A stretch of DNA of 35,642 nt from an uncultured Thermodesulfobacteriota bacterium. Lineage in GTDB: Bacteria; Desulfobacterota; B13-G15; RBG-16-54-18. The notes beneath the pieces were generated by a model that ran no database searches, had not been told where the DNA came from, and saw only the letters and a program-made list of their open reading frames with translations. The stretch is from assembly GCA_964519535.1 (NCBI GenBank), contig CAZFIR010000038.1:1-35642 (forward strand), given 5' to 3'. The number at the start of each line of letters is the position of its first letter. Position 1 is the stretch's first letter. The position numbers were made by a program, and so were the translations under genes. Shown in pieces: positions 6,917 through 15,601 of the stretch.

Positions 6917-9094
6917 CTATCCCCAGCTGAGGAGCATTCCTCCCCGGTAGATGATAAAGGCCAAGATCCAGGCTAGGGCAAGGCCGTAGCCGACCGAGAA
7001 GGCCGTCCACCCCCAGGACCCTGTCTCACGCCGAATGGCCGCTACGGTGGCCAGACAGGGGGTGTAGGCCAAGACAAAAATCATAAAGGCATATCCGACC
7101 AGCGGTGTCATGGCATGCTGGATGGCCGCGCGGAGGCCTTCGCTTTTTTCTCCCTCATCTCTGCCAACCTGATAGAGGACGCCGAAGGTGCTGACCACGA
7201 TCTCCTTCGCGACAAAGCCGGTGAGCAGGGCCACGCCCGCCCTCCAGTCAAAGCCCACGGGGTGCAGGACCGGGGCGATGACCTTCCCCAACCTCCCCAG
7301 AAGGCTCCTTTCCTGGAATTCCATTTTTTGGAGGGTCTCTATCTCGCCGATCTTCTCATCCATCTTTGCGGCGAGCACCTCGGCCTTTGCTGCGTCTGCC
7401 CTTTGGATCACCGCTGCGTACTCCTCGTGGATATGGCTTTTTTGTGCTTCGTAATCCCTGGAGTAGTCCACGCTCTGGGGGAAGGAGCTGAGGGCCCACA
7501 CGATGATAGACCCGAGGAGGATCACCCCCCCCATCTTTTTGATAAAGATGGAACCGCGCTCCCACATGTGGATAACGGTCCCCTTGAGGGTCGGCATGCG
7601 GTAGGGGGGAAGCTCTAAAACAAACGGTGCGATCTCCCCCCTGAAGAGGGTCCGTTTAAAGATCTGGCCCATCAGGATGGCCATGGCGATGCCGATGAGA
7701 TAGATGGAGAAGATGACGTTGCCCGCGCGGGCCCCGAAGAGTGCCCCGGCGATGAGCACGTAGACGGGCAGCTTGCCGCTGCAGCTGATCAGCGGATTGA
7801 TCAGGATGCTGAGGATCCTGTCCCTCCTGCTCTCCAGTACGCGTGTCGCCATAATGGCCGGCACATTGCAGCCGAACCCCATGATCATGGGGATGAAGGA
7901 TTTGCCGTGCAGCCCCAGGGTGTGCATGACCTTGTCCATGATGAAGGCGGCCCTCGCCATGTATCCCGTATCCTCAAAGAGGGCGATGCAGAAAAAGAGG
8001 ATGAAGATATTGGGAAGGAACACGGCCACGCCGCCGACGCCGCTGATAATCCCGTCGACGACGAGACCCCTGAGAAGCCCTTCTCCCATCAGCCCCCCGA
8101 CGAATTCGGTGAGGAGCCCCACCCCGGCGTCGATCCATGCCATGGGATAGCTGCCGAGGTTGAAGGTGAGTTGGAACATGGCCCAGATAAAGAAGATGAA
8201 GATCGGAAACCCGAACAGCCGATTGGTCAGGACCGTATCCACCTGATCGGAGAGGTATCGTCTGTCTTTTTTGGAATGGTGCAGTGTCTCTTTGAGGGCC
8301 CCGTGGATGAATCCGTAGCGGCGGTCGGCTATGAGGGATTCCGGGTCATCGCCCAGTATCTGTTGGAGGCGGAGCTTGCTGCGTTGCAGCTGATCAAGGA
8401 TGGCCTTCTTTCGGGGTTTCTTTTCGATCTCCTTGATGACCTCTTCGTCGTTTTCCAGGAGCTTGATCCCCATCCACCGGGCATGGTGCTCATCCATTGA
8501 TGATCGAGCGGAACGGATCATCCCCTGCACCTTTGCGATCTCCTCTTCGAGTTCCCTGCCGTAATCGATATGGATGTGCCGGGTGACCGATTCTCTATCC
8601 TCCGCCACCCTGACGATGGCCTCTAACAACTCCTTGGTTCCCCGCCCTTTGGTCCCCACCGTTGGTATGATGGGGACGCCCATGAGGAGGGCAAGCTGCT
8701 CGTGATCGATGATCTGCCCCCTCGAGTGGGCAAGATCCACCATATTGAGGGCGAAGACCAGTTTGACACCGAGGTCGATCAACTGCGATGCTAGATAGAG
8801 ATTGCGTTCCAGGTTTGAGGCGTCGATCACGTTGACCACGAGATCGGGTTTTTCCTCGATGATGTAGTTGCGCGCGATGATCTCCTCTTGAGAGTATGGG
8901 GTCAGGCTGTAGGTCCCGGGGAGGTCGACCACATGGATGGTGTAGCCGCCATAGGTAGCGGTCCCCTCCTTCTTCTCGACGGTGACACCGGGCCAGTTTC
9001 CCACCTTTTGGCGTGCACCTGTCAGGTTGTTGAAGATGGTCGTCTTTCCGGAATTCGGGTTGCCCGCGAGGGCGATGGTGATTTCCTTGGCCAT
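6917..9094 (-). CDS. feoB: Ferrous iron transporter FeoB
   Basis: The N-terminal G-domain has GNPNSGKTT and DLPG. A large polytopic membrane domain follows. The 725-aa length is typical of FeoB. Confidence 0.95.
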   Translation of the reverse strand: MAKEITIALAGNPNSGKTTIFNNLTGARQKVGNWPGVTVEKKEGTATYGGYTIHVVDLPGTYSLTPYSQEEIIARNYIIEEKPDLVVNVIDASNLERNLYLASQLIDLGVKLVFALNMVDLAHSRGQIIDHEQLALLMGVPIIPTVGTKGRGTKELLEAIVRVAEDRESVTRHIHIDYGRELEEEIAKVQGMIRSARSSMDEHHARWMGIKLLENDEEVIKEIEKKPRKKAILDQLQRSKLRLQQILGDDPESLIADRRYGFIHGALKETLHHSKKDRRYLSDQVDTVLTNRLFGFPIFIFFIWAMFQLTFNLGSYPMAWIDAGVGLLTEFVGGLMGEGLLRGLVVDGIISGVGGVAVFLPNIFILFFCIALFEDTGYMARAAFIMDKVMHTLGLHGKSFIPMIMGFGCNVPAIMATRVLESRRDRILSILINPLISCSGKLPVYVLIAGALFGARAGNVIFSIYLIGIAMAILMGQIFKRTLFRGEIAPFVLELPPYRMPTLKGTVIHMWERGSIFIKKMGGVILLGSIIVWALSSFPQSVDYSRDYEAQKSHIHEEYAAVIQRADAAKAEVLAAKMDEKIGEIETLQKMEFQERSLLGRLGKVIAPVLHPVGFDWRAGVALLTGFVAKEIVVSTFGVLYQVGRDEGEKSEGLRAAIQHAMTPLVGYAFMIFVLAYTPCLATVAAIRRETGSWGWTAFSVGYGLALAWILAFIIYRGGMLLSWG

Positions 9095-9348
9095 TAGTCC
9101 TCTCTTGACTCTTCCTCGGTTTTTCGCACCAACACCCGGTCGGCCTCTTCATGTCTCAGGCTGACGTGGTAGCCCTTCAGGACGTATTCAATGGGGTCCT
9201 TCAGGGGGGCATATTTTTCCACCATAATCTCCGTTCCCGGGACAAAGCCCATCTCCATGAGCCGCTGCCTGAACCTGCCCGTCCCCGTGATCCGTTCAAT
9301 GATGCCCCGCTCTCCGGTCCTCAGCTCATTCAGTTTTCGCACAGCCAT
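9094..9348 (-). CDS. feoA: FeoA family protein
   Basis: It is an 84-aa SH3-like FeoA sequence (GERGIIERI...RLMEMGFVPGTEI). Its stop overlaps the feoB start (TAATG). Confidence 0.85.
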   Translation of the reverse strand: MAVRKLNELRTGERGIIERITGTGRFRQRLMEMGFVPGTEIMVEKYAPLKDPIEYVLKGYHVSLRHEEADRVLVRKTEEESRED

Positions 9349-9358
9349 CCCCCGTGCC

Positions 9359-10075
9359 TCATTTCTGATCTTGAGGGGTCGTTGTCACTAAGATTTTCTT
9401 GGCCATTCCGGCACCCAGGGCGATCCGGGTTTCCTGCGAGGCCACGATCAGCGGTCCTGGGCCGCTGCTCTTGATCACTTCCACCTCGGCACCCCTCTTG
9501 AGGCCCATGCTTGTTAACCGCCGTTCCATCCCCCTGGCGCCCCGAAATCCCACAATGCGCACCTGCTCACCCGGGGAGGCCATGATAAGGGGCATGACAT
9601 CCTTCCGTTTCCTCAGGCAGTTGGCGCAGAGCCCATAGATATCCATGCGGTGCTGGAGGTCGTGGAATCCCATGCGACGGGCCGTCTCCGCCTGCAGGTC
9701 CTCGATTTCCGGATTATAAAACTCCAGGATGGAACCGCACCGGACACAGATCAGGTGATCGTGGTGTTTGCCCAGGTGATGATGTTCATATTGTGTCGCC
9801 TGATCGCCGAAGTGTTTTTCTTGGGCAAAGCCGTATTGGGCAAAGAGCCTCAAATTTTCGGCTACAAACTCCTCCGTCGCGGAAATCCCCTTTTCTTTCA
9901 GGATACCTGTCAACTCAGAAGCAGTCAGGTGGTTTTCGGTACCGAGAAAAGTTGCAAGGATCGTTAGCCTCTCATCGATCCGGTCGAGCCCTTCACCCTC
10001 GAAGATGACCTTGAACTGTTGATAGATATTCCTGTGGTCTTTCGCAAGTCTTCTGCCTCGCATTCGTGCTCTCAT
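9359..10075 (-). CDS. Fur-family metalloregulator fused to a C-terminal FeoA domain
   Basis: Residues ~30-155 are Fur-like: a winged-helix part, HHHLGKHHDHLICVRCG and a C-terminal CANC. Residues ~161-231 (coordinates 9383-9595) are FeoA-like: GEQVRIVGF...RRLTSMGLKRGAEVEV. Confidence 0.7.
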   Translation of the reverse strand: MRARMRGRRLAKDHRNIYQQFKVIFEGEGLDRIDERLTILATFLGTENHLTASELTGILKEKGISATEEFVAENLRLFAQYGFAQEKHFGDQATQYEHHHLGKHHDHLICVRCGSILEFYNPEIEDLQAETARRMGFHDLQHRMDIYGLCANCLRKRKDVMPLIMASPGEQVRIVGFRGARGMERRLTSMGLKRGAEVEVIKSSGPGPLIVASQETRIALGAGMAKKILVTTTPQDQK

Positions 10076-10084
10076 GTCTTGTGC

Positions 10085-10453
10085 TCAATCATCCAGCCCC
10101 TCTTGAAACCCGACGGTAGGGCGTTCTGCAGTGATGAGCTCACCCCGCTTCACCTTTTCAATGGCAGCGCTGACTGTTCCGGATGCGACAGTATAGACAT
10201 CCATGCCGGCTCCCGTGAGGGTTACGAGTGCGTTGTGCCCGATATTCTTAACGACAACCCCATCGATATCCTTGGCAATAAGCATTTGGCATGCTCGGAT
10301 GCCGGCAGCATTTTTTTCTTTCTGTCCAGGATTTTCAATCGTCTCAGTTGTCATCGATTTTGTATCTATTACCAGAAAGTACGGACAGCGACCGAAACGA
10401 TCGTCAACGCGCGATGATATGGTCTTTCCCTTGGATGCAATGGCGATTTTCAT
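10085..10453 (-). CDS. NifB/NifX-family (dinitrogenase Fe-Mo cofactor biosynthesis domain) protein
   Basis: The N-terminus MKIAIAS...RVDDRFGRCPYFLVID is typical of this family. The 122-aa size fits. It shows ATGA translational coupling with the upstream fur. Confidence 0.75.
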   Translation of the reverse strand: MKIAIASKGKTISSRVDDRFGRCPYFLVIDTKSMTTETIENPGQKEKNAAGIRACQMLIAKDIDGVVVKNIGHNALVTLTGAGMDVYTVASGTVSAAIEKVKRGELITAERPTVGFQEGLDD

Positions 10454-11019
10454 CTTCTGGTATTCCCTGTTTGGTTATGAAGGTTCTTGGTTTGCCTGCT
10501 CATATCAAGTGTCTGATGCTTTTTTAATGCTTTACGTGATGAGTTCCGGACAGTGCATGCTTCCTGCTCCTGCGCGCACTGTGAGCAATACCCTAAGAGT
10601 TCAAATCGATGGGATGTTATAGCAAAATCGTACTTTTTCCCGATCCGGCTCTGAATAGACGCGACAGCGTTATCTGCAAACTCAATGATCCTTCCGCAGC
10701 TGACACATCGGAGGTGACTGTGATGTTTGTGGCCATAGACGTGCTCATAGTGGAGATGGCCGTCCTCGAAATAGACCTCCTTAATCAATCCGCTGTCGAT
10801 GAGGAGGGGGATGGTCCTGTACAGGGAGGCCTTGGAGATCCGCTTCTTCTTGTTCCTCAACCGCAAAAAGAGCTCATCCACGTCGAAGTGATCGTGGATC
10901 GAGAATATCTCATCGATAATTGTCTCCCGTTCCGGCGTATTCCGCAGCCCCTTTTCCTTGATGTATTCCCGGAATTTTTGTATGGCGTCCATGACCGTAC
11001 TATTATTATTGAGTTTCAT
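10450..11019 (-). CDS. fur: Fur family transcriptional regulator
   Basis: Fur signatures include RNTPERETII, SKASLYRTI, HHSHLRCVSCGRIIEF and CSQC. I prefer ATG 11019 because the track start TTG 11025 lies inside the predicted -10 box. Confidence 0.8.
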   Translation of the reverse strand: MKLNNNSTVMDAIQKFREYIKEKGLRNTPERETIIDEIFSIHDHFDVDELFLRLRNKKKRISKASLYRTIPLLIDSGLIKEVYFEDGHLHYEHVYGHKHHSHLRCVSCGRIIEFADNAVASIQSRIGKKYDFAITSHRFELLGYCSQCAQEQEACTVRNSSRKALKKHQTLDMSRQTKNLHNQTGNTRR

Positions 11020-11053
11020 TTTCAATAATACCCCCTTGATCCGGCTCTGTCAA
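11005..11053 (-). promoter_or_regulatory. Candidate sigma70 promoter of the fur-feo operon, with an overlapping Fur-box-like site
   Basis: On the minus strand: TTGACA (11053-11048), a 17-nt spacer, then TATTAT (11030-11025). The -10 ends 5 nt before ATG 11019. GAAAATGAAACTCAATAAT (11023-11005) matches 13/19 of the E. coli Fur-box consensus GATAATGATAATCATTATC. Confidence 0.4.
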
Positions 11054-11151
11054 GTCCCTTTTTGTTCCTCAGCAAAGGCGGACCCGCGGTTTGCTGGCCG
11101 TTGCAGAACAAAAGGATGGCTGGCTTGCGAGGGAGGATAATACAAAAAAGG

Positions 11152-11180
11152 TTGACAGGGTTAATGAATATATGGTAATG
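11152..11180 (+). promoter_or_regulatory. Possible promoter for the Tyr-leader/aminotransferase transcript
   Basis: There is a perfect TTGACA at 11152-11157. The best -10 candidates are only GGTAAT (16-nt spacer) or GTAATG (17-nt spacer), so the -10 is weak. Confidence 0.3.
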
Positions 11181-11199
11181 ACACTGACAAGAGGGTCAC

Positions 11200-11295
11200 A
11201 TGGGATTTAAAAGCCTTTACTACTACTACTACTACTACTACTATTACTACTATAGCGAGAAAGAAAGGAGCCCGGGAGCCTCTCTGCACCAATGA
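11200..11295 (+). CDS. Leader peptide with 12 consecutive Tyr codons (MGFKSLYYYYYYYYYYYYSEKERSPGASLHQ)
   Basis: ATG 11200 is preceded by GAGGG (11191-11195). Twelve in-frame Tyr codons span 11218-11253 and the stop TGA is at 11293-11295. It is followed by a terminator directly upstream of the aminotransferase. At 31 codons it is too short for the supplied ORF track. Confidence 0.7.
   Translation: MGFKSLYYYYYYYYYYYYSEKERSPGASLHQ
11218..11253. repeat. Trinucleotide microsatellite (TAC)8-TAT-(TAC)2-TAT
   Basis: Read directly from the sequence. It is in frame with the leader ORF. Confidence 0.95.
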
Positions 11296-11331
11296 TTTAA
11301 CGGGAAAAGGGTTTATTAGAGGCCGATGGGC
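11270..11331 (+). promoter_or_regulatory. Candidate antiterminator helix of the Tyr attenuator
   Basis: GCCCGGGAGCCUCU (11270-11283) can pair with AGAGGCCGAUGGGC (11318-11331). That gives 5 bp (one G-U), a 3x3 internal loop, then 6 bp. The helix sequesters the whole 5' arm of the terminator. Confidence 0.5.
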
Positions 11332-11356
11332 ACCACGTCCATCGGCCCTTTTTTTA
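11321..11356 (+). terminator. Intrinsic terminator (attenuator) immediately upstream of the aminotransferase
   Basis: An 11-bp GC-rich stem (11321-11331 with 11337-11347) has the loop ACCAC. It is followed by C and U7 (11349-11355). No upstream + strand gene needs it; the SD GGAGG is at 11365 and the ATG at 11376. Confidence 0.8.
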
Positions 11357-11375
11357 TTTCATATGGAGGTGTCAG

Positions 11376-12560
11376 ATGAAGAAAAAGGCACAGTTTGAAC
11401 CGGCACAGCGTCTCAAGGAGCTCCCCCCCTATGTCTTTGCCGAGATCGAGGCGAAGAAACAGGAACTTGAGGCCAAAGGGGTGGAGATCATAGATCTGGG
11501 CAGGGGCGACCCCGATCTCCCTACACCCCCCCATATCGTCGAACGGCTCAAGGAGGCCCTGAAGGCCCCTGACTTCAACCGCTATCCTTCGTACGTCGGA
11601 ATTTCTGAGTTCCGCCGGGCAGCGGCCCGGTGGTATAAAAAGAGGTTCGGGGTATCCCTAGATCCGGAGACCGAGGTCATCTCCCTCATCGGCTCCAAAG
11701 AAGGGGTGTCGCATGCCCCCATGGCATATGTCGATCAGGGGGACATCGCCCTGTTTCCCGATCCCTGTTTCCCCATCTTCTATACCTCCATCCTTTTTGC
11801 CAAGGGCAGGCCCTATCCCATGCCGCTGTTGGAGGAAAACGCATACCTTCCCGACCTGGGCAAGATCCCCAAAGAGGTGGCTGAAGGTGCCAAGCTGATT
11901 TCCCTGAATTATCCCCATAACCCCACGACAGGGGTGGCTACACATGATTTTTTCCGGGAGGTGGTCCGTTTCGCCAAGCAGTACCACCTTGTGGTGATTC
12001 ATGACTTGGCCTACTCGGAGATATACTATGATGGACACTATTGCCCCAGCATCCTTGAGGTGGACGGTGCCAAGGATGTGGTGGTTGAATTTCACTCACT
12101 TTCTAAGACCTATAATATGGCTGGCTGGCGCATCGGTTTCGCCGTTGGTAATGCAGAACTGGTGGGATATCTGACCCTGGTGAAGACCAACATCGACGTG
12201 GGGATCTTCGGACCGATTCAGTTGGCGGGTGTCGAGGCCCTGGAGGGGGACCAATCAAGCGTCGATGAGCTTCGCAGGGTCTACCAGCGGCGCAGGGATA
12301 TCCTGGTGGCCGGGCTGCGTGAGGCCGGGCTCGAGTTCAATGTCCCGCAGGCTACTTTTTACATCTGGGTGCGGGTCCCTTCCGGACATACCTCGGCATC
12401 CTACACGGATTACCTCCTGGACAAAGCGGGGATCATGGTTACCCCGGGCCACGGCTTTGGCAAGACCGGGGAGGGGTACATCCGCTTCGCCCTCACCTTT
12501 TCCGAAGAAAAGCTTCAGGAAGCAGCCCGCCGCCTGGCGGCATTAAAAAAGGAGGGGTAG
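11376..12560 (+). CDS. PLP-dependent class I/II aminotransferase (AspC/LL-diaminopimelate-aminotransferase-like)
   Basis: The N-terminus LPPYVFAEI...IDLGRGDPDLPTP, the NYPHNPTG-like motif and the PLP-lysine motif SLSKTYNMAGWRIGF are present. The RBS is a strong GGAGG. Confidence 0.9.
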   Translation: MKKKAQFEPAQRLKELPPYVFAEIEAKKQELEAKGVEIIDLGRGDPDLPTPPHIVERLKEALKAPDFNRYPSYVGISEFRRAAARWYKKRFGVSLDPETEVISLIGSKEGVSHAPMAYVDQGDIALFPDPCFPIFYTSILFAKGRPYPMPLLEENAYLPDLGKIPKEVAEGAKLISLNYPHNPTTGVATHDFFREVVRFAKQYHLVVIHDLAYSEIYYDGHYCPSILEVDGAKDVVVEFHSLSKTYNMAGWRIGFAVGNAELVGYLTLVKTNIDVGIFGPIQLAGVEALEGDQSSVDELRRVYQRRRDILVAGLREAGLEFNVPQATFYIWVRVPSGHTSASYTDYLLDKAGIMVTPGHGFGKTGEGYIRFALTFSEEKLQEAARRLAALKKEG

Positions 12561-12645: not shown

Positions 12646-12692
12646 GATTTAGGGTCAGGTCCCAACAGGCCGTTGGGACCTGACCCTAAATC
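12646..12692. terminator. Bidirectional terminator hairpin between convergent genes
   Basis: A perfect 21-bp inverted repeat, GATTTAGGGTCAGGTCCCAAC (12646-12666) with 12672-12692, has the loop AGGCC. A T-run follows on the + strand. Confidence 0.75.
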
Positions 12693-12694
12693 TT

Positions 12695-13648
12695 TTAATA
12701 CGTTCTCTCGGCCAAGAATTTCAAGAGGTGATGCAAGATCGGGTGTGAAAAGTTGATGGAATCGGCGATGGACTCAGCCTTATGTAATTGTTTCTCAATA
12801 AATTGTTGGGCTTCATCCAGGACCCCCGCTTGTACGACGGCGTCCCTGGCTGCTGGAAATTCTGGCAGGGCAAAGAGGTCGGGCGGGAGTTGGGGGTTGG
12901 CCTTGTGAAGGTACCCGATGGTGATATAGGTCTTCTTCTTCCGCCGCCAATCGCTTCCCACATCTTTGCCCAAGGTCTTTTCATCCGCTACAAAATCCAG
13001 GAGATCGTCTCTGACCTGAAAGGCCAAGCCGATATGTCCCCCCATATCCTTTAAATGCCCTAAGACATCGCTATTGGATGCACAGGAGAAGTAGCCCAAT
13101 TCAAAGGCCAGCGCGAAAAGCCGTGCCGTCTTTTGGGAGATCATGGGGAGATAGTCATCCAGGGACACGCCATCTCTCGTCTCAAATTCTTTATCCCGCG
13201 CCTGGCCTTCACACACCACGTACATGCCGTCGGTAAAGGCCTCGATCATTTTAATGAGGTGGGGTGACTGGGCGGTGAGCAGTTTCTGATAGGCGAGGGC
13301 GATCATGGCGTCACCCGACAATAAGGCGGTGCCGACATCCCATTTGGTATGCACGGTTTGATATCCCCTTCTGAAGTGATCGTCATCCATGATATCGTCA
13401 TGGACAAGGGTGAAGTCGTGCAAGACCTCGATGGCTATTGCAGCGGGGAGGGCACCTTCGTAATCATTGCAGAAGTGTTCGGCCGTGATAAGGGTGATCA
13501 ACGGTCGAACGCGTTTTCCCGGCAATGTAAAGAAATAGGCGATCGGGTCCCGCAAGGCAGCGAGCCGAGGGAACGGAGCGAAGTTGCGAAATTCCCTGTC
13601 AATGCGTTCCTGATAGGGGAGTAATATGGCCTTTAATGCATCTTCCAT
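12695..13648 (-). CDS. Polyprenyl diphosphate synthase (trans-isoprenyl, FPP/GGPP-synthase family)
   Basis: The first Asp-rich motif is LVHDDIMDDD and the second is FQVRDDLLD. Confidence 0.9.
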   Translation of the reverse strand: MEDALKAILLPYQERIDREFRNFAPFPRLAALRDPIAYFFTLPGKRVRPLITLITAEHFCNDYEGALPAAIAIEVLHDFTLVHDDIMDDDHFRRGYQTVHTKWDVGTALLSGDAMIALAYQKLLTAQSPHLIKMIEAFTDGMYVVCEGQARDKEFETRDGVSLDDYLPMISQKTARLFALAFELGYFSCASNSDVLGHLKDMGGHIGLAFQVRDDLLDFVADEKTLGKDVGSDWRRKKKTYITIGYLHKANPQLPPDLFALPEFPAARDAVVQAGVLDEAQQFIEKQLHKAESIADSINFSHPILHHLLKFLAERTY

Positions 13649-13867: not shown

Positions 13868-15601
13868 TTGAGGGTCAAACTGGCAAAGAGGGCCGGGTTC
13901 TGCATGGGCGTGCGGCGCGCCATGGAGATCGTGCTGTCGGAGATCAATCATGGAACCCGACCTCTCTATACGTACGGCCCCCTCATCCATAATCAACAGG
14001 TGTTAGCGCTGCTCGAAACCAAGGGCGTCAGGGCAGTTGATGACGTCAAAGGTCTGGACGGGGGTGCCATTGTCATTCGGGCGCACGGCATCCCCCCGCA
14101 CGAGCGCCGCGCCATCAAGGACTCGGGCCTGCGGATCCGGGATGCCACCTGCCCCCGCGTGGCCCGGGTGCAGGGCATTATCAGCGCTCACACCAAGCAG
14201 GGATATAGCGCCGTTATCGTGGGCGACAAGGATCACCCGGAGGTCGCGGGCCTTATGGGTTATTCCCATGGCAGGGCTTACGCTGTCAACACCTCGGAGG
14301 AGATCGCGAAACTGCCACGCCTGAAGAAAGTGTTCGTGGTCGCCCAAACCACCCAGTCGGCACAAAACTTTCAGGAGGTGGCGCAGGCCGTCAAGGAGCG
14401 TTTTTCCGAGGCCATGATCTTCGACACGATTTGTGACGCTACCTATAACCGTCAAGAAGAAGTTCGGGCCTTCGCGGGGCATGTAGATGGGCTCGTGGTG
14501 GTGGGCGGCTATAACAGCGGGAATACCCAGCGGCTTGTGCAGGTCTCCCGTGAGTCGGGTATGCCGACCCTGCATGTGGAGACTGAAAAAGATATTGACA
14601 AGTCAAAGCTTGCGGATATGGAGGTGGTGGGTGTGACGGCAGGTGCCTCAACCCCCAACTGGATGATCAAGAGTGTGGTCAGGGAGATAGAGGCCATCCG
14701 GAGCCGCAAAGAGACCTTCCTGGGTCGCTGGATCATCAAGACCGCCCGTTTTTTACTGATGAGCAATTGCGTCGTGGCAGCGGGGGCCTTCGCCCTTGCC
14801 CATGCGGCCGCCGTTCTCACCGGAAGGACCACCGGTCTCATCTATCCATCGCTGGCGTTTTTCTACATCTACGCCATGCACGTCTTGAATCGTTTTCTCG
14901 ATAAAGGCGCCAGCGCTTATAATGATCCGGAGATAGCTACCTTTTACCGAAAATATCGGACCTTTTTGATCGTATCAGGAATCGTCTCCATTATAACGGC
15001 CCTTGCCCTCTCCTGGTATCTGGGGCCGGGGGTCTTTTTCGTTATGGCAGGCTTAAACCTCTTAGGGATCGTGTACAGTATCCCTCTGGTGCCCGAGAGA
15101 CTCAGGCCGGTGTGGCGATACGCTCGCATTAAGGACTTCCCCGGGTCCAAGACCCTCTCAGAGGCCCTGGCATGGGGTGTGGTCATCGCCCTCCTCCCGT
15201 TGTTAGGGAGCCAAGACGTGGCATTGCTGGCTGCATTGGCTGCGTTCATCTTCGTATTTTCAATTACGTATTTCCGATCCGCGCTCTTCGATATCTTTCA
15301 GGAGCAGGGCGATCTCTTCGTCGGTGTGGAGACCCTTCCCATTACCCTGGGGCAGGAAAGGACCCTTTTGCTCCTGAAGGGTGTGGCCGTCTTTACGGGA
15401 GTATTCCTTATTGCGGCCCCCCTTTCCGGGGTGGTTGGACCATTCGCATATCTCCTGCTTCTCTGTGTCCTCTCATTGACCCTCTGCCTCTTCGCCTATG
15501 AGCGAAAGTGGCTTCATCCGGGCAGGCGTTTTGAGGCCCTGGTGGAAGGGAATTTCTTTTTGGCGGGTCTCTTGGGCCTGATCTGGCAGATCCTTTTTTG
15601 A
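13868..15601 (+). CDS. ispH: IspH (HMBPP reductase) fused to a C-terminal polytopic UbiA-like prenyltransferase-type membrane domain
   Basis: Residues 1-~278 are IspH-like, with the three cluster cysteines (GFCMGV, ATCPRV, TICDAT) and GASTPNW. Residues ~283-577 (14714-15598) contain about 8 hydrophobic helices. They carry NRFLDKGASAYND and EQGDLFVGVETLPITLG, which resemble UbiA/MenA Asp-rich motifs. The TTG start follows GGAGGAGGGG. Confidence 0.8.
   Translation: MRVKLAKRAGFCMGVRRAMEIVLSEINHGTRPLYTYGPLIHNQQVLALLETKGVRAVDDVKGLDGGAIVIRAHGIPPHERRAIKDSGLRIRDATCPRVARVQGIISAHTKQGYSAVIVGDKDHPEVAGLMGYSHGRAYAVNTSEEIAKLPRLKKVFVVAQTTQSAQNFQEVAQAVKERFSEAMIFDTICDATYNRQEEVRAFAGHVDGLVVVGGYNSGNTQRLVQVSRESGMPTLHVETEKDIDKSKLADMEVVGVTAGASTPNWMIKSVVREIEAIRSRKETFLGRWIIKTARFLLMSNCVVAAGAFALAHAAAVLTGRTTGLIYPSLAFFYIYAMHVLNRFLDKGASAYNDPEIATFYRKYRTFLIVSGIVSIITALALSWYLGPGVFFVMAGLNLLGIVYSIPLVPERLRPVWRYARIKDFPGSKTLSEALAWGVVIALLPLLGSQDVALLAALAAFIFVFSITYFRSALFDIFQEQGDLFVGVETLPITLGQERTLLLLKGVAVFTGVFLIAAPLSGVVGPFAYLLLLCVLSLTLCLFAYERKWLHPGRRFEALVEGNFFLAGLLGLIWQILF

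Follow-up and report, generated by a model that had tools for sequence, protein, structure and literature searches.

A run of tyrosine codons in a conserved leader upstream of a DapL-family aminotransferase gene: a candidate transcription attenuator in an uncultured Thermodesulfobacteriota lineage

The window analysed here is a contig of 35,642 nucleotides (nt) from an uncultured Thermodesulfobacteriota bacterium, and all coordinates refer to this whole stretch. At position 11376 begins the gene of a class I aminotransferase. The leader directly upstream of it carries a short open reading frame (ORF) with 12 uninterrupted tyrosine codons, followed by an intrinsic terminator. We propose that this leader acts as a transcription attenuator whose regulatory codons specify tyrosine.

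The tyrosine leader and its RNA segments

The features of the leader and of the gene that follows it, in the order in which they occur, are:

11152–11157, plus strand: probable −35 box TTGACA, assigned from conservation
11173–11181, plus strand: probable extended −10 element TGgTAATGA, assigned from conservation of the TGnTA.... block
11186–11204, plus strand: region 1, made up of the Shine–Dalgarno (SD) sequence AGAGGG (11190–11195) and the leader start codon; able to pair with region 2 in the absence of a ribosome
11200–11295, plus strand: leader ORF of 31 codons, MGFKSL-Y12-SEKERSPGASLHQ, with ATG at 11200 and TGA at 11293–11295
11218–11253, plus strand: putative regulatory codons, 12 consecutive Tyr (TAC eight times, TAT, TAC, TAC, TAT); also a (TAC)n microsatellite
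11254–11269, plus strand: spacer of 16 nt from the last Tyr codon to region 2, read from the sequence
11270–11283, plus strand: region 2, the 5′ strand of the antiterminator, GCCCGGGAGCCUCU, from folds and pair counts
11306–11316, plus strand: conserved block AAAAGGGTTTA between leader stop and terminator, kept in most homologues
11318–11331, plus strand: region 3, the 3′ strand of the antiterminator, equal to the terminator 5′ arm (11321–11331) plus 3 nt
11337–11347, plus strand: region 4, the terminator 3′ arm, from the terminator scan
11349–11359, plus strand: terminator U-tract (T7, A, T3), from sequence and scan
11376–12560, plus strand: class I aminotransferase (PF00155) of the DapL family (PRK09276/TIGR03540), with the SD GGAGG at 11366–11370

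The leader ORF opens with ATG GGA TTT AAA AGC CTT, continues with (TAC)8 TAT TAC TAC TAT and closes with the tail AGC GAG AAA GAA AGG AGC CCG GGA GCC TCT CTG CAC CAA TGA. Its full product is MGFKSLYYYYYYYYYYYYSEKERSPGASLHQ. The core of its SD, GAGGG at 11191–11195, lies 4 nt 5′ of the ATG at 11200. Tandem Repeats Finder reports the run as (TAC)11.7 at 11218–11252. Tyrosine accounts for 3.3% of the residues in the ten long ORFs of the window, and in all frames of its 35.6 kb this is the sole amino-acid run longer than five; the run is therefore beyond what chance would produce. Nor is it an artefact of assembly, since a 251-nt segment that includes the 12 Tyr codons recurs unchanged on three further contigs, drawn from three metagenome assemblies (L001, L104 and L111). 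On the JGI contig L001 the leader ORF is annotated as a gene. A poly-valine ORF on the minus strand (11161–11292) was dismissed as a by-product of the repeat, given that promoter, SD and terminator all point along the plus strand.

Transcription is predicted to start at about 11187–11190. The sequence GGTTGACA, which spans the −35 box, is kept in six of six aligned homologues and also in L098, L163 and L168. The extended −10 element begins 15 nt past the −35 box, its TAATGA hexamer 18 nt past it, and the TGnTA.... block recurs at the same position in homologues (TGGTAATGA, TGATAAAGA, TGTTATTAG, TGTTAATTA and TGGTAAAGA). The promoter scan made no plus-strand call at 11152–11181; the −10 hexamer does not end in T.

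The terminator scan identifies a stem of 11 pairs, eight of them G–C, between 11321–11331 and 11337–11347, closed by a 5-nt loop. Its sequence is GGCCGATGGGC-ACCAC-GTCCATCGGCC (11321–11347), followed by one C and then by T7 at 11349–11355. The stem begins 25 nt past the leader stop, and the SD and ATG of the aminotransferase lie about 20 nt beyond the terminator. The upstream neighbour is a Fur-family gene on the minus strand, so that no upstream plus-strand gene needs the terminator at 11321–11355.

Region 2, GCCCGGGAGCCUCU (11270–11283), can be paired by hand with AGAGGCCGAUGGGC (11318–11331) in 5 + 6 base pairs (bp) around a 3 × 3 loop. The same antiterminator is the minimum-energy fold of the window's nascent leader RNA, at −22.2 kcal/mol. 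It takes up the whole 5′ arm of the terminator, and the two helices are therefore mutually exclusive. In most relatives region 2 has the sequence GCCCAUGGGCC and almost repeats the terminator 3′ arm GUCCAUCGGCC, a likeness to be expected if both strands compete for region 3. The region 3 motif GCCGATGGG is almost invariant in an alignment of 11 sequences.

The folds respond to a ribosome, which we simulated as a 29-nt footprint; in the stalled test RNA polymerase stood just past region 3. With the footprint on Tyr codon 1, 6 or 12, the window's leader forms the 2:3 antiterminator in its minimum-energy fold. With the footprint on the stop codon the antiterminator is abolished and the full leader folds into the terminator. 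With no ribosome, the 1:2 helix and the terminator fold. The overall fold of the leader has a z-score of −0.96.

Pairing of regions 1 and 2 is also present in the minimum-energy fold of the untranslated leader. In the alignment 74% of cells are paired in this helix, versus 26–55% when the partner is slid, and its covariation score of 0.252 was reached by 9 of 500 shuffles. We regard the 1:2 helix as a probable, tentative element. In further folds, pairing is seen between the GGGUUU of the conserved block at 11306–11316 and GAGCCC, on the 5′ margin of region 2, and also between the A-rich GGGAAAAGGG just 5′ of the block and the terminator U-tract; the block is a possible anti-antiterminator.

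The original prediction for this DNA had set the leader ORF at 11200–11295, its SD at 11191 and its Tyr codons at 11218–11253, and sequence and translation prove every coordinate right. It had further described a strong terminator of 11 bp with U7, lying 25 nt past the stop and serving no upstream plus-strand gene, which the scan bears out. The 11-bp pairing with a 3 × 3 loop that it drew between 11270–11283 and 11318–11331 is reproduced both by hand and in the nascent fold.

The leader in related genomes

Among the matches listed in a protein search (the best 120), a clade of aminotransferases is 72–94% identical to that of the window and is followed by a gap down to 60% identity or less. Twelve distinct upstream regions from this clade were collected by contig look-ups and by a metagenome scan with the terminator pattern GCCGATGGGCAC-N7-ATCGGCC. 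The scan returned 73 matches, seven of which are real homologues; the others are chance palindromes in unrelated GC-rich DNA. Eleven of the twelve regions, upstream of aminotransferases that are 72–94% identical, carry SD and ATG, Tyr-run ORF, spacer, region 2, stop and terminator in this arrangement, together with the antiterminator. Their leader peptides are:

Window, L001, L104 and L111: MGFKSL-Y12-SEKERSPGASLHQ
L112, L123 and L156: MDCRSL-Y8-RDEERSPWASLHQ
L082: MVYRSPS-Y6-SAKERSPGASLH
L087: MDFGSL-Y6-RDEERSPGASLHQ
L002: MVSRSFYLYYYYSEKERSPGASLRR
L085: MGLRCYYLYYYSEKDRSPGTCLRR
L089: MGLMNLYLYYYVGENRSLWASL
L098: MGSLTIAYYYYSMDHMSPWAFLYR
L163: MYSKRLNKKGRYVYYYYGEEGSPRASLRC
L164: MPYYYYIRNSGCLWASVR
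L165: MRLYRAYCFYYYGERTGAHGPGYAP

The genes flanking the pair vary, with fur/feo in most relatives, an opp ABC transporter in L089, and fdhE together with unknown genes in L164 and L165. Because the flanks differ in this way, leader and aminotransferase constitute a conserved unit.

In the 11-sequence alignment the leader ATG is invariant and the GG of its SD nearly so. The 11 leaders hold between 3 and 12 consecutive Tyr codons (3–8 consecutive and 4–8 in total in the relatives). All substitutions within the consecutive runs exchange TAT and TAC; a Leu or Val codon stands now and then just 5′ of them, and the last three codons ahead of the spacer are Tyr in every leader. A single JGI metagenome, Ga0315537, contains both the 12-Tyr allele MGFKSL... 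(L001) and the 8-Tyr allele MDCRSL... (L112) on different contigs, which indicates that related populations with Tyr runs of different length coexist.

Elsewhere the peptides are less alike. Their N-termini differ among relatives, and the C-terminal motif (E/D)RSP(G/W)ASL, common to most homologues, coincides with the antiterminator strand. L165 reads the region 2 block GCCCAUGGGCC in another frame, as GAHGPG and not as SPxAS. This shift argues that the block is constrained as RNA and that the Tyr run is the only conserved feature of the peptide.

The spacing is kept even where the sequence is not. Of 12 sequences measured for spacing, 10 have 16 nt between the last Tyr codon and region 2 and the remaining two have 13 and 15 nt; the spacer varies in sequence, and the stop codon lies 3–10 nt past region 2. 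In the window, the 16 nt roughly match the stretch that a stalled ribosome covers between its A site and its leading edge. A spacing of 13–16 nt fits the classical geometry, in which region 2 is covered by a ribosome at the stop codon and lies just out of reach of one on the last Tyr codon.

Both helices of the switch are retained. In the terminator 97.5% of the alignment cells are paired across 11 sequences, with G–C/G–U changes and one change of C–G to U–A, and RNAalifold gives it as consensus; L168 adds, by eye, a change of G–C to A–U. For the antiterminator 83.8% of cells are paired, versus 28–55% when the partner is slid by 1–3 columns. It includes one compensatory change of U–A to C–G and a conserved G.G mismatch. 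In most relatives the antiterminator comprises 6 + 7 bp around this single mismatch and is stronger than that of the window. An A-to-G change in region 3 of L163 is matched by C in region 2 and by U in region 4. With the simulated stalled ribosome, the antiterminator formed in 12 of 12 homologous leaders, at −14 to −35 kcal/mol.

The exception to the arrangement is found in L168 and L169, whose aminotransferase is 76% identical to that of the window (the L168 leader lies at about 1000–1147 of its contig). Promoter, SD-like sequence, region 2 and terminator are kept; GTA stands in place of the ATG, the Tyr run has been lost, and what remains is a 10-codon ORF, MKGSPWASHY. In region 3, GGGC has changed to GGAC; the change is compensated in region 4, not in region 2, and the nascent fold reaches −13.3 kcal/mol. 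This leader looks like a decayed or rewired attenuator. A terminator that is kept, and an antiterminator that is weakened once the Tyr run is lost, fit the attenuator model.

Outside the clade the leader was not found. A scan of the genome collection with the aminotransferase yielded one close relative only (L002), and 79 genome loci with aminotransferases of at most 52% identity, which served as negative controls, had no upstream Tyr-run ORF. Relatives at 58–60% identity (P0039 and the Thermodesulforhabdus norvegica protein) also lack the leader and have little or no intergenic space; they are the last genes of lysA-dapF-dapA-dapB operons. No other leader combining an amino-acid run with a T-tract was present in the window or in 16 loci of the same lineage, and no 'Tyr regulon' could be defined from these.

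Proposed mechanism and its alternatives

We consider it highly probable that the element is a classical ribosome-mediated leader-peptide transcription attenuator with tyrosine as its regulatory codons. Its parts, the mutual exclusivity of its helices, its conservation and its spacing all support this reading. The promoter would start a short mRNA at about 11188, on which the leader SD and ATG would load a ribosome at once. With ample Tyr-tRNA(Tyr), the ribosome would reach the stop at 11293 and cover about 11278–11307, and with it the 3′ half of region 2. Once region 2 is masked, regions 3 and 4 would form the terminator of 11 bp and U7, and transcription would end at 11349–11356, ahead of the aminotransferase. 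With charged tRNA(Tyr) scarce, the ribosome would instead stall within 11218–11253, its leading edge reaching about 11266 at most. Region 2 (11270–11283) would then stay exposed and pair with region 3 directly upon transcription of the latter, no terminator would form, and the polymerase would read through into the aminotransferase gene. If the leader were not translated at all, region 1 would pair with region 2 and termination would be the default. Translation of the ORF, termination and read-through, and charging of tRNA(Tyr) as the signal are inferred here from the sequence. The original prediction had reasoned that a stall frees region 2 and that a ribosome at the stop codon masks it; the footprint folds and the conserved spacing agree.

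Several points weigh against this reading. The support is computational throughout, and the host is uncultured and known from metagenomes only. The plus-strand promoter rests on conservation, the scan not having called one. The equilibrium fold of the full-length RNA prefers the terminator even with a stalled ribosome, so that the switch would have to be kinetic, as in the classical trp and his cases. Covariation is thin, and the shuffle controls were not exceeded (170 of 500 for the terminator, 160 of 500 for the antiterminator). These tests are indecisive because the helices are mostly conserved in sequence, and we therefore drew support for the helices from the comparison with slid partners, the preserved spacing and the reading-frame argument instead. 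The loss of the ATG and the Tyr run in L168 and L169 means that the device is dispensable or decaying in at least one lineage. Lastly, the enzyme profile is that of the DapL (lysine/diaminopimelate) family and the 58–60% identical relatives are dap-operon genes, so that control of a Tyr-pathway gene by Tyr codons is a supposition.

At the sequence level the leader shows all the hallmarks of a classical leader-peptide attenuator, and the proposed architecture is that of Escherichia coli pheL-pheA and hisL-his: codons for a single amino acid in a run, regions 1–4 with 1:2, 2:3 and 3:4 helices, a stop just past region 2, a terminator directly before the gene and a read-out through the position of the ribosome. 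The pheL peptide has 7 Phe among 15 codons, and hisL has 7 consecutive His. Twelve consecutive identical codons are, to our knowledge, more than in any classical attenuator. Unlike those two systems, the present leader uses Tyr codons, its region 1 is the leader SD and AUG and not the regulatory codons, it targets one DapL-family gene only, and its host belongs to an uncultured Desulfobacterota-type lineage. It also differs from the leader families in Rfam in having no sequence or covariance-model similarity to them: at 10900–11600 there was no match to the Trp, His, Leu, Thr or Phe leaders, to the T-box (RF00230) or to a riboswitch at E ≤ 10, and nothing reached the gathering score in the whole window.

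Tyrosine is, as far as we know, missing from the textbook catalogue of leader peptides, which comprises Trp, His, Phe, Leu, Thr and Ile/Val. Control by tyrosine is known from TyrR-type repressors or T-boxes. The original prediction knew of no established Tyr-codon attenuator and of none ahead of this aminotransferase class, and this held within the full-text literature searched, where we found no leader peptide with a Tyr run and no such device for this enzyme family. The nearest case there is the aroR leader upstream of aroF in Corynebacterium glutamicum, which, according to a review, contains Phe-Tyr-Phe and responds to limitation for Phe and is unaffected by the supply of Tyr (Neshat et al. 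2014 in PMC11802643). The aroR leader is likewise a leader-peptide attenuator with a Tyr codon and belongs to aromatic amino-acid biosynthesis; it differs in that its target is a DAHP synthase, whereas the present leaders have pure Tyr runs (3–12) and an aminotransferase as target.

What the attenuator controls has to be judged from the enzyme. The aminotransferase passes the cutoff of NF006756, the LL-diaminopimelate (LL-DAP) aminotransferase subfamily (576.7 bits against 507), and falls below that of the equivalog TIGR03540 (570.1 against 593.25). The genome collection yielded one close genome, the metagenome-assembled genome Deltaproteobacteria bacterium RBG_13_52_11, with an aminotransferase of 85% identity. 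In the window, and likewise in all clade members inspected, the gene forms a monocistronic unit whose neighbours are unrelated. None of these loci shows an association with dapA, dapB, dapF or lysA; dap operons occur only with the 58–60% relatives. Pfam annotation found neither dap nor aromatic-pathway genes in the window, and with none nearby the gene context does not settle the role of the enzyme.

Among the matches listed, 13 positions are fixed differently in the Tyr-leader clade (33 sequences) and in the outgroup of 57–60% identity (87 sequences). They include residues 68, 118, 130–135, 143, 176, 249 and 280. The substitutions in the clade comprise H68N, F118Y, G143K and the conversion of PxYPxY to PCFPIF at residues 130–135, with two Y replaced by F, in a segment that adjoins the cofactor/substrate site. 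In alignments with Protein Data Bank structures, residue 132 is F also in the aromatic aminotransferase of Pyrococcus horikoshii (1dju) and Y in DAP-type relatives. We take this match as a weak hint of an aromatic role.

A class I aminotransferase could perform the last step of tyrosine synthesis. The leader suggests that the enzyme may have a role in the tyrosine pathway, with prephenate or 4-hydroxyphenylpyruvate, instead of or besides the formation of LL-DAP; this assignment is inferred only from the leader. The main competing explanation accepts the Tyr attenuator as real and regards the aminotransferase as a plain DapL, the run sensing translational capacity or the state or anticodon modification of tRNA(Tyr). 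The subfamily cutoff that the enzyme passes speaks for it, as does the nearest outgroup (58–60%, including Thermodesulforhabdus norvegica) with its lysA-dapF-dapA-dapB-aminotransferase operons. It sits poorly with a clade whose gene has moved out of the dap operon and is monocistronic wherever its neighbours were inspected, with a score just under the equivalog cutoff, and with 13 clade-fixed positions that include PCFPIF, the first F of which is shared with the P. horikoshii enzyme. Moreover, in every established leader-peptide attenuator that we know of, the regulatory codons match the controlled pathway or synthetase. We consider a plain DapL unlikely, though well worth keeping in view, and favour a dedicated Tyr enzyme or a bifunctional enzyme over a plain DapL with an odd sensor.

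There is a precedent for a DAP-family enzyme in tyrosine synthesis: Graindorge et al. reportedly showed in 2014 that N-succinyl-DAP aminotransferases of actinobacteria and Nitrosomonas are prephenate aminotransferases. Those enzymes are of the DapC type, whereas the present one is of the DapL type (PRK09276/TIGR03540) and known from its sequence alone. Placing such an enzyme under Tyr-only control would make sense in an organism whose Tyr comes via arogenate and whose Phe comes via phenylpyruvate.

The remaining explanations dispense with the attenuator itself. The (TAC)n could be a hypermutable microsatellite in the 5′ untranslated region, with a fortuitous, untranslated ORF and a hairpin that is constitutive or otherwise regulated. 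The repeat is indeed a near-perfect tandem, its length varies between strains (4, 5, 6, 7, 8 and 12 Tyr codons) as slippage would give, and one relative (L168) has no run. In the relatives, however, the runs mix TAT with TAC and are broken by CTT or GTG, the last three codons are always Tyr, and the run stays in frame with a conserved SD and ATG. It also keeps a distance of 13–16 nt to region 2, with the stop always 3–10 nt past that region. A neutral repeat would preserve neither frame, start codon nor spacing, and we think this origin of the run very improbable.

A translation-independent RNA switch is a further candidate, either a riboswitch or a T-box-like element with a metabolite or tRNA(Tyr) as ligand, in which case the ORF would be incidental. 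Riboswitches too are read out through alternative terminator and antiterminator helices, and UAC is a Tyr specifier codon. Tyr-specific T-box leaders occur in Firmicutes upstream of tyrS and tyrosine genes (PMC1262725, PMC3315439), and a comparative study placed tyrosine genes under T-boxes and listed attenuators for His, Thr and Phe (PMC1262725). Such T-boxes resemble the mechanism proposed here in sensing charged versus uncharged tRNA(Tyr) with a terminator/antiterminator switch. They differ in binding the tRNA directly, through specifier codon and T-box sequence and without translation, whereas here the ribosome would be the sensor. The leader gave no T-box or riboswitch match in Rfam (E ≤ 10 or gathering score). 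The segment 5′ of region 2 has only about 80 nt, varies in length and is largely unstructured; its only conserved features are the SD, the ATG and the Tyr codons. A switch that works without translation thus seems hardly credible.

A functional Tyr-rich micropeptide, or a TnaC-like arrest peptide that senses a small molecule, is likewise hardly to be expected: the motif (E/D)RSP(G/W)ASL is shared by most homologues and the ORF is called as a gene in the JGI annotation, but this C-terminal motif coincides with the antiterminator strand, L165 has GAHGPGYAP in its place from the same RNA block in another frame, N-termini and lengths vary freely, and the ORF ends inside the terminator/antiterminator switch.

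Surrounding genes and wider significance

The rest of the window holds formate dehydrogenase accessory genes, feoAB, two Fur-family proteins, an IspH-UbiA fusion, pyruvate kinase, adenylosuccinate lyase and others; a search for tRNA genes found none. The following lies at the downstream end of the aminotransferase gene:

12646–12692: perfect hairpin of 20 bp with 10 G–C pairs, between the convergent aminotransferase and polyprenyl synthase genes

This hairpin is probably a bidirectional terminator that ends the monocistronic aminotransferase transcript. The polyprenyl diphosphate synthase gene (12695–13648, minus strand) adjoins a plus-strand gene at 13868–15601 for a 577-residue fusion of IspH/LytB (PF02401) with a UbiA-type prenyltransferase (PF01040), domains that are assigned from the homologous locus L085.

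Upstream of the leader, the Fur-family gene on the minus strand (10450–11025) has a near-consensus promoter of its own, TTGACA-17-TATTAT from 11053 to 11025, with 11 of 12 matches. Its −10 box ends about 5 nt before an in-frame ATG at 11019, a distance so short that fur is probably transcribed as a leaderless mRNA. A Fur-box-like 7-1-7 palindrome (TGAGTTTCATTTTCA in the window, TGAGAATCATTTTCA in L002) overlaps the start of fur in the region 10997–11053 and suggests that the gene may be autoregulated. The promoter and start block of fur is kept in L002, L082, L085, L087 and L168. Beside this stand-alone Fur-family gene, the minus strand encodes at 9359–10075 a protein of 238 residues with Fur and FeoA domains (Pfam assignments from homologous loci), which lies inside the feoA-feoB cluster (6917–9348).

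Within the literature searched, what is new in the leader is its amino-acid specificity, the family of its target gene, the bacterial lineage and the long run of variable length (4–12 Tyr codons). A conserved Tyr-run leader would add an amino acid to the range of leader-peptide attenuation and bring the mechanism to a little-studied, uncultured deltaproteobacterial lineage. It also suggests an aromatic or prephenate aminotransferase role, possibly besides that in DAP formation, for a gene that annotation pipelines call LL-diaminopimelate aminotransferase. Elf and Ehrenberg are said to have provided a theory of how the number of regulatory codons sets the sensitivity of an attenuator, and the natural series of 4, 5, 6, 7, 8 and 12 Tyr codons, together with one loss, bears on this relation.

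We put forward a broader proposal more tentatively. The leader may be the first Tyr-specific ribosome-mediated attenuator, acting on a DapL-family enzyme that has been recruited as a Tyr-pathway aminotransferase for prephenate or 4-hydroxyphenylpyruvate and that would represent a fourth, hitherto unrecognised bacterial class of prephenate/aromatic aminotransferase, while the (TAC)n may serve as an evolvable 'gain knob'. If this were true, the function of the gene would have been predicted from its regulatory signal, in contradiction to its automatic annotation, and the in-frame (TAC)n, with its 4–12 Tyr codons between strains, would tune the sensitivity of the attenuator.

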